Shown: positions 9,122 to 46,193 of the stretch, one piece after another
Position numbering within the stretch: the stretch's first letter is position 1
Layout of the letters: each line of letters opens with the position of its first letter
Virus record (IMG/VR): IMGVR_UViG_3300045988_103144
Direction: 5' to 3' (one strand)
Origin: a virus
Length of the DNA stretch: 46,193 bases
Made by a program: the position numbers and the translations under genes
Notes under the pieces: model-generated
Seen by the model: only the letters and a program-made list of their open reading frames with translations
Database searches by the model: none
Told to the model about the DNA's origin: nothing

Positions 9122-10027
9122 TTATAAATCGTCGAACAAATTACCCTGTAATTTATGCTCACAATACCAATGTTTAAGGCCCTGCTTAGAAGTCCACCAA
9201 TTAAAAACCTCCTCGTCTGTTAGGTCGGTATAACGATTCACATAGCCGTTTTCTCTTAATCGGTGTATGGTACGCAATATTAAAGCCTTGTAGCGTGGAT
9301 ATGCCCCCCCTTGTTTTATAATTTCTTTTTGGCTTGCCATCGGGCAAAACAAACACCCGATACGTTGCCAACCTTTATCGTATAGCTCGCAGTGTTCTAC
9401 TTTAACGACTTCATTAAGAAAGTACCAAACATCTTCTTTCGTCCAATCTATGATAGGGTTTATCACGATTTTGTCTTTGCCCTTGACACACTGCACGCCC
9501 TCAACTTCTTGGCTTCGTGTAAATTGGTCTAACTGCTCAAAGCTGCCACTAAATCGGTCTGTCTTCTTCGCTCTGATAATCTCGGCTTCGTTTCTGTGGC
9601 TTCGCTGTACGGATTCCTCACGCCTTACACCTGTAAGTGTAACTGTCCCGGCTCCTTTGGTTTCTTTCAGTACGGCGCAACAAAAGCGCATTAAGCGAGT
9701 TGGCAAAGCCTTACTTTTGATGCAAAGTTGGGCAAAGGTTAGTTTAGGTCTATCTATTGCAACATCAGGATATTTGTTACGGATAAACATAACTAACTCT
9801 GGTGGATCTAAAGTCGTGAGGCTATAATGAGCGTCAAACTTTACACCTGCTAATACTGCCACGTGGTAAAGGCTCTGGCTATCTTTGCCCCCACTAAATG
9901 CCAAATAAAACCCCTTATCTGAATAACGCAAAGCCAACTTTTCCGACTTCTGTAATAACTCGATACTGTGTTGCAACTTTTTGTCAAAGTTAAGGGGTTT
10001 TCTCTTTTGATACGCTGTACTGTTCAT
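9122..10027 (-). CDS. PAPS-reductase-family PP-loop ATPase
   Basis: 301 aa with the PP-loop SGGKDS (LAFSGGKDSQS) and C-terminal cysteines (IGCLFCP). Confidence 0.75.
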   Translation of the reverse strand: MNSTAYQKRKPLNFDKKLQHSIELLQKSEKLALRYSDKGFYLAFSGGKDSQSLYHVAVLAGVKFDAHYSLTTLDPPELVMFIRNKYPDVAIDRPKLTFAQLCIKSKALPTRLMRFCCAVLKETKGAGTVTLTGVRREESVQRSHRNEAEIIRAKKTDRFSGSFEQLDQFTRSQEVEGVQCVKGKDKIVINPIIDWTKEDVWYFLNEVVKVEHCELYDKGWQRIGCLFCPMASQKEIIKQGGAYPRYKALILRTIHRLRENGYVNRYTDLTDEEVFNWWTSKQGLKHWYCEHKLQGNLFDDL

Positions 10028-10029
10028 AA

Positions 10030-10179
10030 CTAATTAAACCAAATCTTAAAATACCGCCAATCTATGCAACCGGGGCACTGCTCGCAAACTTCACACTCCG
10101 ATATTTTACAAACTCCGTAGCCGGGTTTGTCTTCATCAGGATCGTATGATAGGCACGTTTTGCAGTACATCTTTTTCAT
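10030..10179 (-). CDS. Small cysteine-rich protein (49 aa, 8 Cys), hand-translated
   Basis: MKKMYCKTCLSYDPDEDKPGYGVCKISECEVCEQCPGCIDWRYFKIWFN. It is below the ORF-track cutoff. Its stop lies 2 nt before the ATG (10027) of the PAPS-reductase-like gene. Confidence 0.4.
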   Translation of the reverse strand: MKKMYCKTCLSYDPDEDKPGYGVCKISECEVCEQCPGCIDWRYFKIWFN

Positions 10180-10203
10180 AATTGGCGGTATTGGTGAATA
10201 ATG

Positions 10204-10221
10204 GCACGGCTTTCGCCGTGC
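10204..10221 (-). promoter_or_regulatory. GC-rich hairpin with a GAAA loop downstream of VR2 (candidate DGR target-recognition element)
   Basis: Plus strand reads GCACGGC-TTTC-GCCGTGC. A near-identical element lies at 22108..22127. Confidence 0.6.
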
Positions 10222-10250
10222 TTAAAGATTAAAAACTAAAATATTAAGGG

Positions 10251-10961
10251 CTAAAAAATAAATGCTGACACTGCCCTAACTCTGCCCGTGTTGCTGGCCT
10301 TAGTGGTCCAATTGCTCGAAGTACCGTCGTCGAGGTACAGATACCACGCGTTGGTCGCACTGCTCTCGGTAGAAGTCCAATACCAACGGTCTTGCAGTTT
10401 ATCGCCCTTGGCAAACTCCAAAGCTGCATTGATAGTCTTTTTGTTGATAAAGATACGGTACAACTCGCCTAAAGATGGTATGTACCAATCATCAGCTAAC
10501 TTTATCTTTGGATTCAGGATGCTACGCAAATGGTTGGTGTTTCTCGCTCCGTCCATGTCTGCTACTGCATCGTCGTACTTGTCGATATAATAATCTTGGT
10601 CGGCTTTTAGATCGCTATTGCTCTTTGTGGTTAGTGCGATACCATCGCCGTTAGCCTCATCGTGCAAAGCTATCTTAATGCCAAAGCTACCCATCTTCAG
10701 ACCGATAGCCACTACCTCGCTATCCATGTTGTCGTCTTTGGTGTACTCCAGTTCAAACAAAGTTGCTTTGCCGTCGGCGTGTACCAAATAGACGCCGTCC
10801 TCTATGCCGGATTTTGGTAACTGCGCTTGTACTGGCTTTTCGTCCTTACCCATCACAAAGGTATTGGCTTTCTCCGCATCTTCCACGTTGCCACACCATT
10901 GTAATAACTCGTATCTGAATTGCTGCACGTCTGATAGTGCCTTACTTGTCTGTATCTCCAT
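10251..10961 (-). CDS. DGR target protein 2 (DUF1566/lectin-fold C-terminus carrying VR2)
   Basis: 236 aa. WYIPSLGELYRIF...WYWTSTESSATNAWYLYLDDGTSSNWTTKASNTGRVRAVSAFIF. The last 36 codons are collinear with the TR. Confidence 0.85.
   Translation of the reverse strand: MEIQTSKALSDVQQFRYELLQWCGNVEDAEKANTFVMGKDEKPVQAQLPKSGIEDGVYLVHADGKATLFELEYTKDDNMDSEVVAIGLKMGSFGIKIALHDEANGDGIALTTKSNSDLKADQDYYIDKYDDAVADMDGARNTNHLRSILNPKIKLADDWYIPSLGELYRIFINKKTINAALEFAKGDKLQDRWYWTSTESSATNAWYLYLDDGTSSNWTTKASNTGRVRAVSAFIF
10263..10370 (-). repeat. DGR variable repeat VR2
   Basis: 108 nt, collinear with TR 21493..21600. By hand alignment there are 10 mismatches, all at TR adenines (T on the + strand). Confidence 0.85.
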
Positions 10962-17327: not shown

Positions 17328-17549
17328 GCAAATTTTCAGCAAATAGTTTTTAGGTGTTCGTAATTAATTATAAATCAATAAGATATGAATAATATGGGAT
17401 TATTAAGTGGTGTCACGGCTCTAGTAGCCAAACACCTGATAATCAGCCCTAAAATGGGGGCTTTTTTCTGCGCCAAACCCCTAAAAATGGGCGAAATATG
17501 GTGCATTTTGGTAGGTTCGGGCGCAAAAATCAGCAAATTTTCAGCAAAT
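17328..17549. repeat. 17-bp direct repeats GCAAATTTTCAGCAAAT bracketing about 190 bp upstream of int; candidate attP arm sites
   Basis: Exact copies at 17328-17344 and 17533-17549. CCCTAAAA(A)TGGG occurs at 17447 and 17479. Confidence 0.4.
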
Positions 17550-20266: not shown

Positions 20267-21451
20267 TCAGTAGTCGCCATTTCTAATTCTCTGCATAGTT
20301 TGATACCTCAATTTATGTTTGTTCTTAATTACCAATACTTCGTAGTGCCCTTTGATGTACACATATTCTTTATATATGCGCGGCTCGATCATGTTAAGCA
20401 CTTTACGACGCATAGCATATTCATTGGTATGCCTTAACAAACCTAAATATGAGTTGATACTACATACCGCGTGTAATACCTGACGCTCGTTGTTAGCCTT
20501 GTTTAGTCGCCTGACCGCGGCAATAAAGTTTGTTATTGTTCTGTTACAGGTATAGACACGTCCGGGCTTTACTATTGACCCGGTAAACTCCACGCCTTTG
20601 CTGTAGTGTTGCAAATAAAACTTTTTCTCATTCAGTCGTAAACCTAACTTGGCTAATAGTTCACGTATCTTAGGCACCAACGCCAATAGCTTTTCTTTGT
20701 CCTTATGGATGCAATAGAAGTCGTCTACATATCTGCCATGATGTTTTATACCCTCATTCTCAATATACCAATCAAGCGTATTAAGTAAGAAATTGGCAAA
20801 TATCTGGGCAAACAGGTTGCCGATGGCTACGCCCTTACCCTCACCATTTGTAAATAGTGATTTGTTCTTATCCAACTTCTCCCAATAGCTTAAAGGGCTG
20901 TGCCGTTCACAATTCCTTTCGGGGCTGTGTAAAATAACGACACGGCAAAGGTAGCGCAAATCGTCTATGTCTTCGCCCTTGTAGTACCTGACTATAAAGC
21001 GATCTACCATTTCAGCCAATAACTTTTTGTCGATGCTCATAAAGAAACCTTTTAAGTCAAGTTTCATAATGTAGCAATCTTTCGTGTAATTATTGCTGCA
21101 CTGCCTTATATCTTCTTTCAGCATATTAATACCATAAAGCTGCCCTTTGCCTTTCCTACAATTAAATGTACGCTCGCTAAAGATTTCTTCAAATAGCGGC
21201 GTTAGGCGCAAAGCTATGTAATGGTGTACGATTCTATCTTCAAAGGATGCTGCAAATACCTCTCTGTATCTTGGGCGTGTTACGACAAAGCAAATAGACT
21301 TACCCGGTTGGTATGTTCGGTTATTGATTCTATCACGCAAAGCAATCAAACGGCTTTCGTAGTCCATTTCGTAAACAACCGCGCTCGCTGTCCGTCTCTT
21401 GCTATGGCGACAATCAAAGTAAGCATCTAAAAGCCATTCTGTCGTTACCAT
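20267..21451 (-). CDS. DGR reverse transcriptase
   Basis: 394 aa with the RYVDDFYC catalytic box and the DGR-type GVAIGNLFAQIFANFLLN motif. Its start lies 41 nt downstream of the TR. Confidence 0.85.
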   Translation of the reverse strand: MVTTEWLLDAYFDCRHSKRRTASAVVYEMDYESRLIALRDRINNRTYQPGKSICFVVTRPRYREVFAASFEDRIVHHYIALRLTPLFEEIFSERTFNCRKGKGQLYGINMLKEDIRQCSNNYTKDCYIMKLDLKGFFMSIDKKLLAEMVDRFIVRYYKGEDIDDLRYLCRVVILHSPERNCERHSPLSYWEKLDKNKSLFTNGEGKGVAIGNLFAQIFANFLLNTLDWYIENEGIKHHGRYVDDFYCIHKDKEKLLALVPKIRELLAKLGLRLNEKKFYLQHYSKGVEFTGSIVKPGRVYTCNRTITNFIAAVRRLNKANNERQVLHAVCSINSYLGLLRHTNEYAMRRKVLNMIEPRIYKEYVYIKGHYEVLVIKNKHKLRYQTMQRIRNGDY

Positions 21452-21492
21452 TGTATATTATCATTTGTCACGTTTCTGCTTTCTGTAAATAG

Positions 21493-21600
21493 TGCTGACA
21501 CTGCCCTAACTCTGTTCGTGTTGCTGGCCTTAGTGTTCCAATTGTTCGTATTACCGTCGTTGAGGTTCAGATTCCACGCGTTGGTCGCACTGTTCTCGGT
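21493..21600 (-). ncRNA. DGR template repeat (TR)
   Basis: 108 nt homologous to the 3' ends of two ORFs. Sense strand reads ACCGAGAACAGT...GTGTCAGCA. It is adenine-rich, with 11 AAC/AAT codons in the VR frame. Confidence 0.85.
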
Positions 21601-21663
21601 TGGCCGCAATCTGTGGTCTATTATCTTGTTCTTAGCCGTAAATGACGGCATAAACCCCATTTA

Positions 21664-22080
21664 TTACGGAAAACTGCGCTCTCGGTCTGTCGTAACATTC
21701 CGATTCTGGCTACAAAGCGTATTAACTACTTTGTTTTTCCACGCTGACGATTGTTTACCTATTTCGTCCATTAACTCGATGATATTTGCAAACTTTCCTC
21801 TGCCTTTTATCCATTCCCTTTCTCCGGCAATTCTCATTAGCGTTTTCATTGTCTCAAACTCTGCCTGAAACTCGGTTAGGTGCTTTACTGTCTCGGCTTT
21901 GTCCTTATTGATGTACGACGCCGCTATTTCCTGCATCAGATTAACGCCAATTTCTTGCAGCTTTGCCCCGATGGTGAATTTGTAGGCACGTGGGAAATTT
22001 GGCACTATATCCAAAATGATGTCTAACAACTTTCTTGCATCTAAATAAATCTTTGTACTTGAAACTAATTTTACCGCCAT
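21664..22080 (-). CDS. avd: Accessory variability determinant (Avd, four-helix-bundle protein)
   Basis: 138 aa, helical and basic (…DIVPNFPRAYKFTIGAKLQEIGVNLMQEI…), located between target and TR. Confidence 0.7.
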   Translation of the reverse strand: MAVKLVSSTKIYLDARKLLDIILDIVPNFPRAYKFTIGAKLQEIGVNLMQEIAASYINKDKAETVKHLTEFQAEFETMKTLMRIAGEREWIKGRGKFANIIELMDEIGKQSSAWKNKVVNTLCSQNRNVTTDRERSFP

Positions 22081-22107
22081 TGCTTGTTTATTAAATTGCC
22101 TTATAAT

Positions 22108-22127
22108 GGTACGGCTTTCGCCGTACC
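22108..22127 (-). promoter_or_regulatory. GC-rich hairpin with a GAAA loop downstream of VR1
   Basis: Plus strand reads GGTACGGC-TTTC-GCCGTACC. It is the paralogue of 10204..10221 with a compensatory C:G to T:A change. Confidence 0.6.
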
Positions 22128-22155
22128 TAAAGGTTAAAGACTAAGAAATTAAGAA

Positions 22156-22935
22156 TTAAATAATAAATGCTGACACTGCCCTAACTCTGCCCGTGTTGCT
22201 GGCCTTAGTGCCCCAATAGCTCGTACCTTCGTTGAGGCTCAGATACCACGCGTAGGCCGCACTGCTCTCGGTAGAAGTCCAATACCAATCCTCGACTAAC
22301 TGGGTGGCTCCGGCAATCAGGGACAAAGCATAATTGATTTTTGTCATATTGGCATAAATCATCATCATTTCGCCCAACGATGGCAACCACCATTTACCTG
22401 CTGTCAATCCCTCACCTTTAGCATTTACCCGACTATACAGATTGCAGTAGCCCGGTGCATACTGCGCCGTATTGGTTATTGCATCGGCTCTACTTGCCTT
22501 GATTGTAGCCGCCGTGTTCGTCTTACCGTTCCAATCGTTCATCGCCGTAACACGATCTCCTGTTGTCGTACCGCCCCCGCTAATAGCTGCGCTACTCCAC
22601 GTTAAAGGTGAACTTGATTCAGTAGGGGCCACAACTAAGATTTTGCCGCCCTCTACAATTACTACACCCTCGGCAATTTCGCCGCTGTTTTGGTAGGATG
22701 GCCATTTATAAGGCTTAACCATAAGTGGGAAATTGTCGCTATTACGATGAAACATGATAAAGATACCGTCGTTTATGCTGTCAAGGTTCATACCTGCCAT
22801 CAAAGCGGCTTTGAGGTTCGCTAATGAAATAAGCGTAACCTTTCCGTTTGTGTCCGTTACCGGAAATTTCTGGTCGTTGTTGATGGTCGTTACTGTTGCC
22901 TGGCCACTCAACTTTTTTGTTTTCTTTATTGCCAT
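22156..22935 (-). CDS. DGR target protein 1 (DUF1566/lectin-fold C-terminus carrying VR1); probable receptor-binding tail protein
   Basis: 259 aa. WWLPSLGEMMMIY...WYWTSTESSAAYAWYLSLNEGTSYWGTKASNTGRVRAVSAFII. It is the last gene of the tail-fibre cluster. Confidence 0.85.
   Translation of the reverse strand: MAIKKTKKLSGQATVTTINNDQKFPVTDTNGKVTLISLANLKAALMAGMNLDSINDGIFIMFHRNSDNFPLMVKPYKWPSYQNSGEIAEGVVIVEGGKILVVAPTESSSPLTWSSAAISGGGTTTGDRVTAMNDWNGKTNTAATIKASRADAITNTAQYAPGYCNLYSRVNAKGEGLTAGKWWLPSLGEMMMIYANMTKINYALSLIAGATQLVEDWYWTSTESSAAYAWYLSLNEGTSYWGTKASNTGRVRAVSAFII
22168..22272 (-). repeat. DGR variable repeat VR1 (105 nt, one codon shorter than the TR)
   Basis: Hand alignment to the TR gives 11 adenine-site mismatches, one non-adenine mismatch (GAC to GAA) and loss of one AAT codon. 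Confidence 0.8.
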
Positions 22936-30742: not shown

Positions 30743-33700
30743 TTACACATTATAGTTCTTGCCGCTCTTCTTCGCCACTCGCTTAACATCTGTAATCATG
30801 TCAAGTAACTTGCGTGCGTTGGCATTCATATTGATGTTTACCTCCGTGGCTGTCGGCTCAATGTCGTTTGTTATGTTCTGCATCGTCACCGGCTGTAATC
30901 TCCGCTCCGTAAAGGTAGGCGGCTGAAACTTGCCGTCGATCATGCCGAACAATCGGGCTTGCTGAAACTTGTTTAGTATCATCTCGCCGCTGTTCACTCG
31001 GGCAAACTTCTTGTCGCCCGATGTAGAAGTACCGCCGATAACACCACCAGTGGCAAATCCCGAAACTGCTGCGAGTGCCGCAATAACTGCCGCCACACCT
31101 GCCGCAATCGCTACCAGGTTCAAAGGAAATGGCATTTTTGCACCGCTCGCCGTGGCATTTGCAACCGCTTCACCGCTCTTGGCTGCCGTGTTGGCTGTAG
31201 CTGCTGCCGCTTCTCCTGCCGTTGCTGCTGCATCGGTAGTGGATGCCGCCGCATGTGCTGAGGTTGCCGCCGTGAGCATGTCGAACAATGCCACAATACC
31301 CTGTATGCCCTCGGCAATGGAAATAAAGCCATTAATAAGCCCCGTTACCTGCTGCCAGGCATCACCGTTGCCCTCCAGTGCATCACTTATGCCCTGAATG
31401 CCGTTGCCTACGCCCTGGATGCTTCCCCAACCGCTTTTGATGTCGCCAAACACCTTGTCAAAACCCTTGCTGTCAAGTTCAATCTTTATAGGCTTCAATC
31501 CGATTTCTGCGAGTTGTCGGTTTATCTCCTCAATCTCTTTCAGTGCCTCGTCCTTGCCAATAATTCCTATCTCGTAGTCGGTTTGTATGCGGCTTGCCTT
31601 ATTCTGGGCGTTGCTGTGGCTCTGTCTCTTGTCGGCTGCACTTCCCTGCACGATGTATGCCGGTTCCGTCTCTGCCTTGATAGATACCTTACCCTTTGTA
31701 GTTTCGTCTATCTGCCGTTGTATGTCGGCTATCTTGGCATCGGCTTTCACCCTTGCATCTATTGTGGTGGCTTCCTCAAACTCCTGCTGTGCGTCGTGCA
31801 ACTGTTCTTGCAGTTCCTCGATGTAGGTTTTGAAATGTACCTCTATCGACTTAACGCCCAACTTTTCAAGCTGCTTGTTAATGTCGGCTATCTGCCTTTC
31901 GGCATCTTCCTTGCCGATAAGTCCTATTTCAAAGTCCTGCTTTATCCGGTCAATGTTGTGTTGTGCATTGGTTCGACTCTGTCGTTTGTCGGCATCGCTT
32001 CCCTGCACAATGTATGTTGGTTCTGTCTCTGCCCCGATAGATACCTTACCCTTTGTAGCTTCGTCTATCTGCCGTTGTATGTCGGCTACCTTTGCATCGG
32101 CTTTTACCCTTGCATCTACGGTCATGGCGTTGCCCATTTCCTTTTGTGCCGCCGCCAACTGCGCCTGTAGTTCCTCTACGTGGGTTTTCGGTTCATCTTT
32201 CTTGTTGTCCTTGATGGTCGTTTTCTTCGGGGTATCCTTGGCGTGTGGGGTAGTCGGTGTACCAGCCGTAATAAAACTACGTGCCGTGTTCAGCCGTGTG
32301 GTGAGCTGCTTTTGTGTGTCACCAATCTGTCGGTTTACGGATTCAATTTCTTTATCTACACTATTAATCTGTGTGTTTCCGGAAACATTCGTACCGTTGT
32401 ACCTCTCCGCTCCAACCTTGGTAAATCTCCACTGCCCATCGCGGCCAACCTTGCCGTAACGATCGCTACGCCAACTTTCGGGCACGATGTCACCCTCTTT
32501 GGCGTGTCTGCCTCCCTGCTTGGCATCGTCGGCAATAGTCTTGGTGATTTTCTGCTTTTTATCAAGCAACTCAATTTGACGCTGATACAAAGCCGTGAGT
32601 TTTGCCGCATACGCTGCCGCCAATGCCCTTTGCTTGAATGCCTCCACCACTGCATCGGTTCTGCGGTTAAATATGTTCTCGGCTTCCGTCACGTTACCGA
32701 TTTTCAGGCGCAATTCATTGAAAGCACTTTGGTTATCCTTTATCCACGCCATTTTCTGCTGCTCTGTGGATAATGCGCGCCAACCTGCTTTCAATTTCTC
32801 ATATTTCGCCATGAGGTCGGCGTATGTGTTCTTTAGCGCACTGTCGTAGGCGGTTTTTATGTCGTCGGCTGCATTACCAAAGCCTTTCATGCTCTCGGCT
32901 GTGTCCTCTGCTTGGGTCTGCGCATCTGCCGACTTTGAGGTAAATGCCGCTATAACCTCAGTAAGCGCAACGATAGCCACGCCAACGCCTGTAGATATTA
33001 ACAAACCCTGTATGGCAAGTTTCAGCGTTGTAGCACTCACCGCCGCACCGCGAAATGAAGCTGTCATTACTTGCACCAAAGCATTCATACGCACCGATGT
33101 AGCGTTCCATACCAGTGAAGCGGCATTCATTGCCATTGTGCGAACCTTGACAATAGCCTGTATCTTTGCAAGATTCTTCAAACCGCTAACCATTGCAGAA
33201 ACGGCAATCACGGTATTGCCAATCTGTGCCGTAATGTTGAGTACCGGCATAATGCCACCCATCGTTGAGGCTATAGCGTCGCCCACTTCTGCAAACTTGT
33301 TTTTGAGTATCTGCAAACTTGCCGCTCCGCTGCTGCTCATAATGGAAAAAGCATCGTCTATAGTTCCGGCACTGCCTTTCATCGCTTCCACGTTTTCATT
33401 AAACTTGGCTGCGAGTTGTCCGGTGAGTGGCCCCAATGCTCTCAGGCTCTCGGCACTGCCGAATAACTTCCCGTAGATTTCCTGCTCCAGCATACCGCTC
33501 TTGCTGGCGTATGCCTTAACGTTCTTATCTAAGTCGGTGAGGAAATTACGCATACCTCCTGCCGCCTTGATAGCTGCTGCATCAAACTCGATGCCCATTT
33601 GCTGTGCCATCTTGCTTGCCTCGCTCGACGGCTTCACCAAAGCGGTAAAGATAGCGGCTAACTGGGTGGAAACTTCTGCCGTGTTACCGCTCACGCCCGT

Positions 33701-34375
33701 AAGCGTTGCAAAGGTCGCCATAAGTTCGTCAATGCTTACACCCAAAGTGGCGGCATTGCTCGTAACTTTCGGTAGGGCTTGTGCAAGCTGCTCGAACGAT
33801 GTTACACCATTCTTGGCCGTGAGCTGTATTTTATCCTGCACATCGCCTGCCTTGTCCCACGACAAACCATAATTCTTGATAATGGTAGATGTAACCTTTA
33901 CAGTCTCGCCCAGATCAGCAATACCGCCCACGGATGCCTTAGCCGATTTCTGCAAAAAGGCTATCCAGTTGTCTTCAGGCACGCCATTGCTGATAACCTG
34001 GTATAATCCGTTAGCGAGTTCGTCACGTACTACCGGAATGCTTTTTGATAACTCGGCTACCTGTCCTTTGAGTCTGGCAAAGTCCTCGCCGCTCTTTCCT
34101 GCCATCGTGTTAGCGGCGTTCATGGCTGCGCTGAAACTGCGGCTTTCCTCGGTAACGCTGTTGAGTGCTCCCGAAATCTGCGAAATGGCATTGGTAACGT
34201 TATTAGCCGCCATTACCGCCTGGTTGAAATTAACCAAAGCCGCGTTTAGTTTTTGGCTGCTCGTCTTGGCAGAATCAAGCACACGGCGCAACTCTTCCGC
34301 TGTAGAAGTAGCTGTAACCAACTGCTCTTTGCCGTCAACAACCAGTTTAACGTTAAATTTTATTTCTTTTGCCAT
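30743..34375 (-). CDS. Tail tape measure protein
   Basis: 1210 aa. It is helical and Ala-rich, with hydrophobic segments and an internal tandem repeat, and sits after the frameshifted chaperones. Confidence 0.85.
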   Translation of the reverse strand: MAKEIKFNVKLVVDGKEQLVTATSTAEELRRVLDSAKTSSQKLNAALVNFNQAVMAANNVTNAISQISGALNSVTEESRSFSAAMNAANTMAGKSGEDFARLKGQVAELSKSIPVVRDELANGLYQVISNGVPEDNWIAFLQKSAKASVGGIADLGETVKVTSTIIKNYGLSWDKAGDVQDKIQLTAKNGVTSFEQLAQALPKVTSNAATLGVSIDELMATFATLTGVSGNTAEVSTQLAAIFTALVKPSSEASKMAQQMGIEFDAAAIKAAGGMRNFLTDLDKNVKAYASKSGMLEQEIYGKLFGSAESLRALGPLTGQLAAKFNENVEAMKGSAGTIDDAFSIMSSSGAASLQILKNKFAEVGDAIASTMGGIMPVLNITAQIGNTVIAVSAMVSGLKNLAKIQAIVKVRTMAMNAASLVWNATSVRMNALVQVMTASFRGAAVSATTLKLAIQGLLISTGVGVAIVALTEVIAAFTSKSADAQTQAEDTAESMKGFGNAADDIKTAYDSALKNTYADLMAKYEKLKAGWRALSTEQQKMAWIKDNQSAFNELRLKIGNVTEAENIFNRRTDAVVEAFKQRALAAAYAAKLTALYQRQIELLDKKQKITKTIADDAKQGGRHAKEGDIVPESWRSDRYGKVGRDGQWRFTKVGAERYNGTNVSGNTQINSVDKEIESVNRQIGDTQKQLTTRLNTARSFITAGTPTTPHAKDTPKKTTIKDNKKDEPKTHVEELQAQLAAAQKEMGNAMTVDARVKADAKVADIQRQIDEATKGKVSIGAETEPTYIVQGSDADKRQSRTNAQHNIDRIKQDFEIGLIGKEDAERQIADINKQLEKLGVKSIEVHFKTYIEELQEQLHDAQQEFEEATTIDARVKADAKIADIQRQIDETTKGKVSIKAETEPAYIVQGSAADKRQSHSNAQNKASRIQTDYEIGIIGKDEALKEIEEINRQLAEIGLKPIKIELDSKGFDKVFGDIKSGWGSIQGVGNGIQGISDALEGNGDAWQQVTGLINGFISIAEGIQGIVALFDMLTAATSAHAAASTTDAAATAGEAAAATANTAAKSGEAVANATASGAKMPFPLNLVAIAAGVAAVIAALAAVSGFATGGVIGGTSTSGDKKFARVNSGEMILNKFQQARLFGMIDGKFQPPTFTERRLQPVTMQNITNDIEPTATEVNINMNANARKLLDMITDVKRVAKKSGKNYNV
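31466..32179 (-). repeat. Tandem 357-bp (119-aa) duplication inside the tape measure gene
   Basis: Peptide units VEELQAQL...ARVKADAKVADIQRQIDEATKGKVSIGAETEPTYIVQGS... and IEELQEQL...ARVKADAKIADIQRQIDETTKGKVSIKAETEPAYIVQGS.... The matching nucleotide string tagataccttaccctttgtag starts at 31681 and 32038. Confidence 0.8.
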
Positions 34376-42807: not shown

Positions 42808-43023
42808 AACTAAATGACTTTGACAAAAACGAAAAAACCGCGCTACGTGCTGTCAGGTCTCATTTAGCAAGAACCCCGGGGCATTTCTGCTACCCGACAC
42901 GGCGCGGCTATCTCTTTATATAGAAATATCCTATTATACTTACTATGGCATGGATACAAAAATAGCCGCTACGTTACGGTGAACGGCGGCAACATCTGTA
43001 CCGCTAAATGAAATTTGACACTG

Positions 43024-45659: not shown

Positions 45660-46166
45660 ATGATACGTTACAAGAAGTACAAAAGCAATCAGACGGGCGT
45701 AACCAAAAACAAGTGGTACGGCCGTGCCGTTACCGAACTTATGGAGTTTGAGGAATTCGTAAAGCACATGGCAAACCATCACTGCGTGTTCGGTGAGTCC
45801 ACAATCCGCGGCGTGCTGATCGAGATGCAGATTTGTATGCGTGAGCTGCTGCTGGAAGGCAAGGCGGTACGCCTCGATGACCTCGGCATCTTCCGCATTG
45901 GCCTGGAAACCTCCGCGGCTACCACCGCCAAGGAGTTTACCGCCGACAACATCAAAGCTGTGCGCCTTAACCTCTATCTCGGCAAACGCTTCCGTGCTGC
46001 GGACCTCTACAAAGATGCCAAGTTCCGTGAGGCTGGCAAGTATGATGGCGGCGGCGACGATGGCGGCGAGACTGCCGGTACCCACGATGAGGGTAGCAAC
46101 ACCAGTGGTGGCAATATGCCGGACGGCGGCTCCACCGATGATTCAGCCGATGTTGGGCTAGAGTAA
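45660..46166 (+). CDS. HU-family (Bacteroides HU_HIG-type) DNA-binding protein with a Gly/Asp-rich tail
   Basis: 168 aa counted from the ATG at 45660. MIRYKKYKSNQ...WYGRAV...EFVKHMANH...IRGVLIEMQICMRELLLEGKAVRLDDLGIFRIGL. Confidence 0.6.
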   Translation: MIRYKKYKSNQTGVTKNKWYGRAVTELMEFEEFVKHMANHHCVFGESTIRGVLIEMQICMRELLLEGKAVRLDDLGIFRIGLETSAATTAKEFTADNIKAVRLNLYLGKRFRAADLYKDAKFREAGKYDGGGDDGGETAGTHDEGSNTSGGNMPDGGSTDDSADVGLE

Positions 46167-46193
46167 TGGCTTCTGTAATTAGTGGCGAAATAT
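46117..46193. repeat. Terminal direct repeat, copy 2 (identical to 1..77)
   Basis: Exact 77-nt identity with the window start. Confidence 0.9.

Follow-up and report, generated by a model that had tools for sequence, protein, structure and literature searches.

Efficient mutagenic homing by the diversity-generating retroelement (DGR) of phage BPP-1 requires an inverted repeat of 8 bp just 3' of the variable repeat (VR) of the target gene mtd; both its stem structure and its GAAA loop are needed (PMC3240598). The hairpin or cruciform was demonstrated in negatively supercoiled DNA, the element acts at the DNA level, and a heterologous gene was targeted by the initiation of mutagenic homing (IMH) sequence and the hairpin alone (PMC3240598). 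We analyzed a viral DNA of 46,193 nucleotides (IMG/VR record IMGVR_UViG_3300045988_103144; the whole stretch is referred to as the window), which carries a complete DGR and two GC-rich hairpins, each located 3' of the VR of one of two target genes. Judging from their sequence and from comparison with related loci, the two hairpins are probably cis-acting target-recognition elements of this phage's DGR, of the same kind as the mtd hairpin/cruciform of BPP-1; the equivalence had been proposed in a preliminary description of the window and is supported by the anatomy and the comparisons given below.

Hairpins of phage DGRs were described in general to have GC-rich stems of 7–10 bp, 4-nt GRNA loops, and a position 4–34 bp from the VR (PMC3240598). 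The distance between the VR and the hairpin was termed 'quite flexible', the range of 4–34 bp was derived from about a dozen examples, and altered spacing reduced the homing efficiency of BPP-1 (PMC3240598). IMH and IMH* of BPP-1 differ at 5 of 21 positions, and this sets the directionality of homing (PMC3240598). Guo et al. (2011) remarked on the terminator-like look of DGR hairpins and drew an analogy with group IIC introns (PMC3240598). The MyDGR tool routinely predicts DGR hairpins using the 4–34 bp window (PMC6602519). In a 2026 study in E. coli, deletion of the stem-loop impaired retrohoming severely, though not completely, and the stem-loop was proposed to prolong an open state (PMC12875486). 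The paper on the Bacuni phages of Bacteroides uniformis deals with the template repeat (TR), the VRs, which differ between isolates, and a correlation with host range; hairpin, IMH, and cruciform are unmentioned (PMC8143477). The 'Tentaclins' paper was set aside as irrelevant, as its 'hairpin' refers to protein beta-hairpins.

On the plus strand, hairpin 1 (22108..22127) reads GGTACGGC-TTTC-GCCGTACC with a stem of 8 bp, and hairpin 2 (10204..10221) reads GCACGGC-TTTC-GCCGTGC with a stem of 7 bp. Read in the sense of the target genes, which is that of the minus strand, the loop becomes GAAA and the hairpins are GGTACGGC-GAAA-GCCGTACC and GCACGGC-GAAA-GCCGTGC, respectively. Hairpin 1 separates target gene 1 from avd, whose start is about 27 nt further downstream, and hairpin 2 is 3' of the remote target gene 2. 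The identity between TR and VR stops at 22168 for VR1 (22168..22274, minus strand) and at 10263 for VR2 (10263..10372, minus strand), ending in ...GTGTCAGCA, and the minus-strand spacers between VR and hairpin are therefore 40 nt (spacer 1, 22167..22128) and 41 nt (spacer 2, 10262..10222). Spacer 1 has a GC content of 15% and contains the stop codon of target gene 1 (22158..22156), and a CTTTAAC-CTTTA stretch that is conserved in the family lies in it immediately 5' of hairpin 1. Spacer 2 is AT-rich and paralogous to spacer 1, and both are among the lowest 0.3% of the 40-mers of the genome by GC content. AT-richness was rejected as a hallmark of the spacers, as 33 other regions of the genome, of which at least many are located at gene boundaries, are equally AT-rich.

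The two hairpins differ at three bases: a T:A pair in one copy corresponds to a C:G pair in the other, with both sides changed, and the third difference, at the terminal base, creates the eighth pair of the VR1 stem. Each stem has six G:C pairs and is closed by a C:G pair around the GAAA loop. When folded as single-stranded DNA, the hairpins had predicted energies of −10.5 and −9.7 kcal/mol (z = −3.8 and −3.4 against shuffled sequences). The values for the sense and antisense strands were almost equal for both hairpins, and folding energy thus leaves the choice of strand unsettled. On re-reading the sequence, we confirmed what the preliminary description had given for the hairpin sequences, their coordinates, the distances of 40 and 41 nt past the VR ends, the sense-strand GAAA loop, the three bases at which the copies differ, and the similarity of the AT-rich spacers. 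The paired change had also been taken there as a sign of selection on structure. Because both hairpins sit within a paralogous block of 121 nt, which is 88% identical (10198–10318 and 22103–22223), one compensatory pair between the two copies is weak evidence alone, and the strong evidence is that of the relatives.

Within the genome, the hairpin class was found only at the ends of the VRs. A motif search of the window, as had been suggested in the preliminary description, gave two matches even with up to three mismatches allowed, both directly 3' of the VRs. In a census of perfect stems of at least 7 bp with at least five G/C and a 4-nt loop, hairpins 1 and 2 were the sole members of the class in the genome, for which shuffled sequences predicted 0.47. 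No T-run is present 3' of either hairpin (the tails are CATTATAAGG and CATTATTCAC), and a terminator scan called neither of them; the same scan called canonical sites such as that at 17445–17462, which is followed by TTTTTTCT. The earlier view that the hairpins would make poor intrinsic terminators for want of a U-tract agrees with these results. The Rfam 15 search at the gathering threshold over the whole window returned nothing matching at hairpin 1 or 2, and neither did a search of 21400–22400 at E ≤ 1 at hairpin 1.

Related loci were retrieved by scanning IMG/VR with the reverse transcriptase (RT), which gave 80 loci with 63–100% RT identity; the TR was located upstream of the RT gene and the VRs by similarity. 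Additional loci were obtained from a scan with the phosphoadenosine phosphosulfate (PAPS) reductase that neighbors target gene 2, from the cultured B. uniformis phages F2 and Bacuni_F1, and from Bacteroidales genomes and metagenome-assembled genomes (MAGs), which gave 27 loci. Most loci from the PAPS-reductase scan (L091–L094, L096–L106, and L108–L110) are without a target gene and hairpin upstream and served as negative context only. A perfect hairpin (stem of at least 7 bp and 4-nt loop) was found 29–47 nt downstream at 83 of the 86 VR ends, mainly at spacer lengths of 37–43 nt. The remaining three VR ends (L054, L069, and L078) have near-versions of the hairpin, with a G·T pair in one case and loops of 6 and 8 nt in the other two. 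The relatives hold 19 stem/loop versions, whose stems include GGTACGGC, GCACGGC, TGGCACGGC, GTTCCCGGC, GTACCCGGC, GGTGCGGC, GATACGGC, AGTGTGGC, GCCCGCC, and AGCCCGGC. The sense-strand loops are GAAA, GGTA, GGCA, GTTA, and, in Bacuni_F1, GCAA, that is, nearly always G-N-N-A; the loop is asymmetric and its orientation is fixed relative to the VR. Distant DGRs with 44–48% RT identity also have GC stems after the VR, with GTTA, GGA, or GAA loops.

Covariation was computed on a MAFFT alignment of 30 sequences. The helix was 87% paired, compared with 27–43% when the 3' partners were slid by 1–3 columns, and double-sided changes were observed in seven of the nine stem pairs (43 cells). None of the 500 shuffles matched the observed covariation score or percentage paired, and RNAalifold independently recovered the same 8-bp helix. 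The compensatory changes are concentrated in the outer four to five pairs, while the four pairs next to the loop (CGGC/GCCG) hardly vary (27–29 of the 30 sequences). The covariation analysis proposed in the preliminary description therefore came out in favor of selection on structure, with the qualification that the core of the stem is conserved as sequence. Absence of the hairpin from related DGR targets, or a lack of covariation among them, which that description had named as speaking against its proposal, was not observed.

Two of the related loci have mixed 3' ends. In L025, the spacer at the VR1 end (about 9285–9330) is chimeric, with a VR2-type 5' part followed by a VR1-type 3' part and hairpin; in L083, the VR2 end (about 2266–2310) has a VR1-type spacer and a VR2-type hairpin. 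These chimeras suggest gene conversion or recombination between the paralogous target 3' ends.

The hairpin is associated with the VR and is independent of which gene comes 3' of it. The related phage DNA (1.22 Mb) contains 96 hairpins of the class, 82 of them immediately 3' of a VR end and 14 elsewhere; frequent occurrence at the ends of non-target genes, the outcome that the preliminary description had named as counting against its proposal, was not seen. When distinct stretches of 100 nt were compared, a hairpin of at least 7 bp was present in 46 of 48 stretches downstream of VRs and in 1 of 45 downstream of TRs. The exact 18-mer GYACGGCGAAAGCCGTRC was found in 114 stretches across the whole of IMG/VR. 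Among the 80 matches listed, 69 were preceded by both the VR-end motif and a lectin-fold C-terminus, three were copies of the element truncated at the end of a contig, and eight were unrelated, so that about 90% of the occurrences among the matches listed lie 3' of a VR. In L090 and L095, the genes after the remote target are not related to those after either window hairpin, yet the remote target has kept its own hairpin, which is the sole one in each locus. The remote target of Bacuni_F1, which is followed by a methyltransferase gene, has likewise kept its own hairpin, and the stems of the remote hairpins of L090, L095, and Bacuni_F1 are different. In L093, the neighboring genes are present, the target gene is absent, and there is no hairpin.

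In the 40.4 kb of Bacuni_F1, the class is represented by three hairpins, and its two VRs are each followed by one of them. The sole one away from a VR (locus L251, 13381–13398, GCCCGCC-GTTT-GGCGGGC) is located between a regulator gene and terL, whose ends converge there; it may be a bidirectional terminator.

At the 3' ends of the repeats, TR and VR are not distinguished by their sequence. The last 22 nt of VR1 (22189..22168) and of VR2 are equal to those of the TR and form an IMH-like region. In 46 distinct TR/VR pairs, the final 22 nt are identical, the adenines within them are never mutated, and the identity then ends abruptly. Similarity between the TR- and VR-downstream sequences beyond this point was considered as a means of shortening the spacer and was not used, as about 9 of 20 matches in AT-rich DNA is not convincingly above chance. 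At the VR ends of the window, the 22-nt block in common with the TR is thus followed by about 40 nt of AT-rich spacer and then by a GC-rich hairpin of 7–8 bp closed by a C:G pair around the sense-strand GAAA loop; the TR has neither spacer nor hairpin. Because IMH/IMH* mismatches are absent from the TR and VRs, the spacer together with the hairpin is most likely what discriminates recipient from donor and marks an open reading frame (ORF) as a target, and it is the best candidate for the recipient mark.

By analogy with BPP-1, the inverted repeat would extrude as a hairpin or cruciform in negatively supercoiled or single-stranded DNA, and the extruded hairpin would mark the adjacent repeat as the recipient. 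RT and Avd would make adenine-mutagenized cDNA from the TR RNA, and the hairpin would raise the efficiency with which the VR is replaced. As a plausible route, a stable sense-strand C(GNNA)G hairpin could keep the VR single-stranded longer during replication or transcription, which would give the antisense cDNA time to anneal. The G-rich strand by GC skew is the sense strand for both targets; if replication runs with transcription, the sense-strand hairpin would be on the lagging-strand template, the orientation favored in the E. coli study (PMC12875486).

Other explanations for the two hairpins were weighed against target recognition. The hairpins might be RNA-level elements, unrelated or additional to homing, such as a target-specific terminator, an attenuator, or a 3' stem-loop of the C(GNRA)G type that stabilizes the mRNA. 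Each hairpin lies just past the stop codon of its target on the sense strand, and GAAA is a classical stable RNA tetraloop whose stability in RNA fits such a role, as does the terminator-like look noted by Guo et al. along with the analogy to group IIC introns (PMC3240598). However, neither hairpin has a T/U-tract or was called as a terminator, although the phage has canonical sites of hairpin plus T-run elsewhere, and the class is absent from other gene ends in the genome and rare elsewhere in the 1.22 Mb of relatives. The missing T-tract and the two censuses exclude a generic terminator. Moreover, the GGTA, GGCA, and GTTA loops of many relatives are not GNRA loops, and the BPP-1 element was shown to act on DNA (PMC3240598). 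We therefore consider an RNA-level role improbable as the explanation of these elements.

The palindrome could also act as a duplex operator, bound by a dimeric regulator or by Avd/RT to control the expression of avd, TR, and RT with no structure being formed. The nearly invariant CGGC...GCCG half-sites across the family and the short distance from hairpin 1 to the avd start would suit an operator. However, unrelated genes and not avd come after hairpin 2 and after the remote hairpins in L090, L095, and Bacuni_F1, the outer stem changes are compensatory, as expected for base pairing rather than for a fixed protein site, and the loop is asymmetric with a fixed orientation to the VR; an operator is thus very unlikely. 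Passive duplication would explain the likeness of the two copies by a recent duplication of the target 3' end, in which the inverted repeat is a functionless passenger and the paired change a coincidence. The 88% identity of the block containing both hairpins and the weakness of a single compensatory pair between two copies are compatible with it. Against it, the hairpin persists in at least 19 stem/loop versions among relatives with RT identities as low as 63%, although the non-coding DNA around it diverges, the covariation is well above the shuffled and slid controls, and the distant DGRs also have GC stems after the VR. Because the hairpin persists in the relatives and covaries, passive duplication is effectively refuted.

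Several observations weigh against reading the hairpins as target-recognition elements. At 40 and 41 nt, the window hairpins are 6–7 nt past the published range, which we take as descriptive. The rare loops that are not GNNA (TTGT and TTAA) and the imperfect hairpins of L054, L069, and L078 depart from the pattern. The near-invariance of the CGGC/GCCG core means that the hairpin is not purely structural and makes sequence-specific binding inseparable from a cruciform role. The placement of the hairpin on the lagging-strand template is speculative, as the GC skew is the sole observation behind it and transcription could equally cause that skew. Lastly, recent homing at VR1 is not evident in this genome. 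VR1 has 13 differences at TR adenines, one non-adenine mismatch (C to A), and a 3-nt deletion relative to the TR, the latter two at 22200–22215 (21545–21560 in the TR), and VR1 alleles shorter by 3 nt are also present in L020 and L026. Because precise homing would erase the deletion and the mismatch, the VR1 allele either has had no recent rewriting or arose from an imprecise event. VR2 is of full length, and its 11 differences from the TR are all at TR adenines.

A bolder proposal is that this Bacteroidales phage family uses a composite target signal and, unlike BPP-1, tells donor from recipient wholly by the module found at VRs only, which would set directionality; we put it forward tentatively and regard it as less likely than not. 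The proposed parts of the module are the very AT-rich spacer of roughly fixed length (about 40 nt), the conserved CTTTAA(A/C)CTTTA box, and a hairpin with a constrained CGGC-GNNA-GCCG core, which Avd/RT or a host factor may contact. If the proposal is true, the 22-nt block, spacer, and hairpin (about 85 nt) would be a portable tag sufficient to target any Bacteroidales ORF, and a search window of 4–34 bp would systematically overlook the hairpins of gut DGRs.

The kind of hairpin itself is already described, and no new mechanism is involved. What appear to be undescribed are the spacer of about 40 nt, the identical 3' ends of TR and VR, the sequence-conserved stem core, and the Bacuni hairpin, which the Bacuni paper leaves unmentioned (PMC8143477). 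The presence of a hairpin at DGR targets is confirmed for a widespread family of Bacteroidales phages of the human and animal gut, Bacuni included. The 19 versions provide a comparative set that separates the structural part (outer stem) from the constrained parts (core, GNNA loop, and spacer length). Annotation limited to 4–34 bp, as in the published MyDGR criteria, would miss both window hairpins. For retargeting a Bacteroides DGR to a chosen gene, the obvious minimal cassette to try would combine the 22-nt block with the spacer and the hairpin.

The window represents a circular phage genome of about 46,116 bp, as its termini carry an exact direct repeat of 77 nt (1–77 and 46117–46193). It has a GC content of 46%, and the minus strand carries nearly all of its genes. 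The DGR is complete and is also on the minus strand, in the order target gene 1 (22156..22935, 259 aa), avd (21664..22080, 138 aa, a bAvd-like accessory protein), TR (21493..21602), which is without a hairpin downstream, and the RT gene (20267..21451, 394 aa, RVT_1); the second target gene (10251..10961, minus strand, 236 aa) is remote. RT (RVT_1) and avd (bAvd) scored above the Pfam cut-offs. The Lcl_C/DUF1566-like C-termini of both targets scored slightly below the gathering cut-off of 34.9 bits (32.2 bits, E = 1.5e-07 for target gene 1, and 32.7 bits, E = 9.9e-08 for target gene 2). Target gene 2 is about 11 kb away from the RT gene, and its neighbors are replication and modification genes. 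A Cys-rich ORF of 49 aa (MKKMYCKTCLSYDPDEDKPGYGVCKISECEVCEQCPGCIDWRYFKIWFN; 10029–10178, minus strand) lies between hairpin 2 and the gene with a PAPS-reductase domain (10027..9122).

Some of the RT relatives give clues to the host: RT fragments on the Prevotella sp. CAG:732 scaffolds L225 and L249 are 97–98% identical to the window RT, and the RT of a Bacteroidaceae MAG (L224) is 89% identical. More distant relatives of the RT occur across Muribaculaceae, Parabacteroides, and Porphyromonadaceae MAGs. Two MAG contigs labeled Alphaproteobacteria and Azospirillaceae (L234, 1085–2196, and L236, 1111–2197), with 44–45% RT identity, carry, upstream of the RT gene, a tandem array of four to five TR-like copies spaced by about 240 nt, which may represent either small targets in tandem or a non-coding unit that is repeated; both contigs were left out of the comparison because of multiple ambiguous TR-like matches. 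Elsewhere in the window, Rfam matched a c4-2 RNA (RF02944, a family of c4-type antisense RNAs) at 42834–42909 on the minus strand with 55 bits (gathering threshold, 41). A direct repeat of 300 nt (31484–31783 and 31841–32140, 73% identical) lies within an ORF of 1210 aa (34375..30743); the region 31484–32140 is an internal duplication of this very long protein, possibly a tape measure.

Among known systems, the insertion sites of group IIC introns likewise have a GC-rich stem-loop at the 3' end of a gene, recognized by machinery related to retroelements. Unlike these sites and intrinsic terminators, the window hairpins have no U-tract and other gene ends are without the element; unlike group IIC introns, no intron is inserted, and the repeat upstream of the hairpin receives copied information. 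Compared with the hairpins catalogued for phage DGRs (PMC3240598) and those predicted by MyDGR (PMC6602519), the window hairpins share the GC-rich stem of 7–10 bp, the 4-nt GRNA loop, and the position 3' of the VR, whereas the catalogued distance is 4–34 bp and that of this family is 29–47 nt, mostly 37–43 nt. The GTTA loop of some relatives fits GNNA and falls outside the catalogued GRNA. In their sequence features, the window hairpins agree with every criterion of a DGR hairpin except the empirical distance range.

The closest cultured relatives are the B. uniformis phages Bacuni F1, F2, and F4, with about 67% nucleotide identity over the DGR, whereas the window phage is uncultivated. Like the window, they carry a local and a remote DUF1566 target; their local hairpin is identical to hairpin 1 (GGTACGGC-GAAA-GCCGTACC), and the remote one is GCCCGGC-GCAA-GCCGGGC. 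In BPP-1, the site read directly from the sequence is VR-TAG-GCGGGGCC-GAAA-GGCCCCGC, followed by avd. Its stem sequences are unrelated to those of the window, its spacer is about 4 bp in contrast to the AT-rich 40–41 nt of the window, and its IMH and IMH* are mismatched, whereas VR and TR of the window are identical over the last 22 nt; function was shown in BPP-1, and we infer it for the window. The two systems agree in the order of target gene with VR, hairpin, avd, TR, and RT, in the GC-rich 8-bp stem with a C:G closing pair and a sense-strand GAAA loop, in the absence of the hairpin after the TR, and in the conservation of the stem as a structure.

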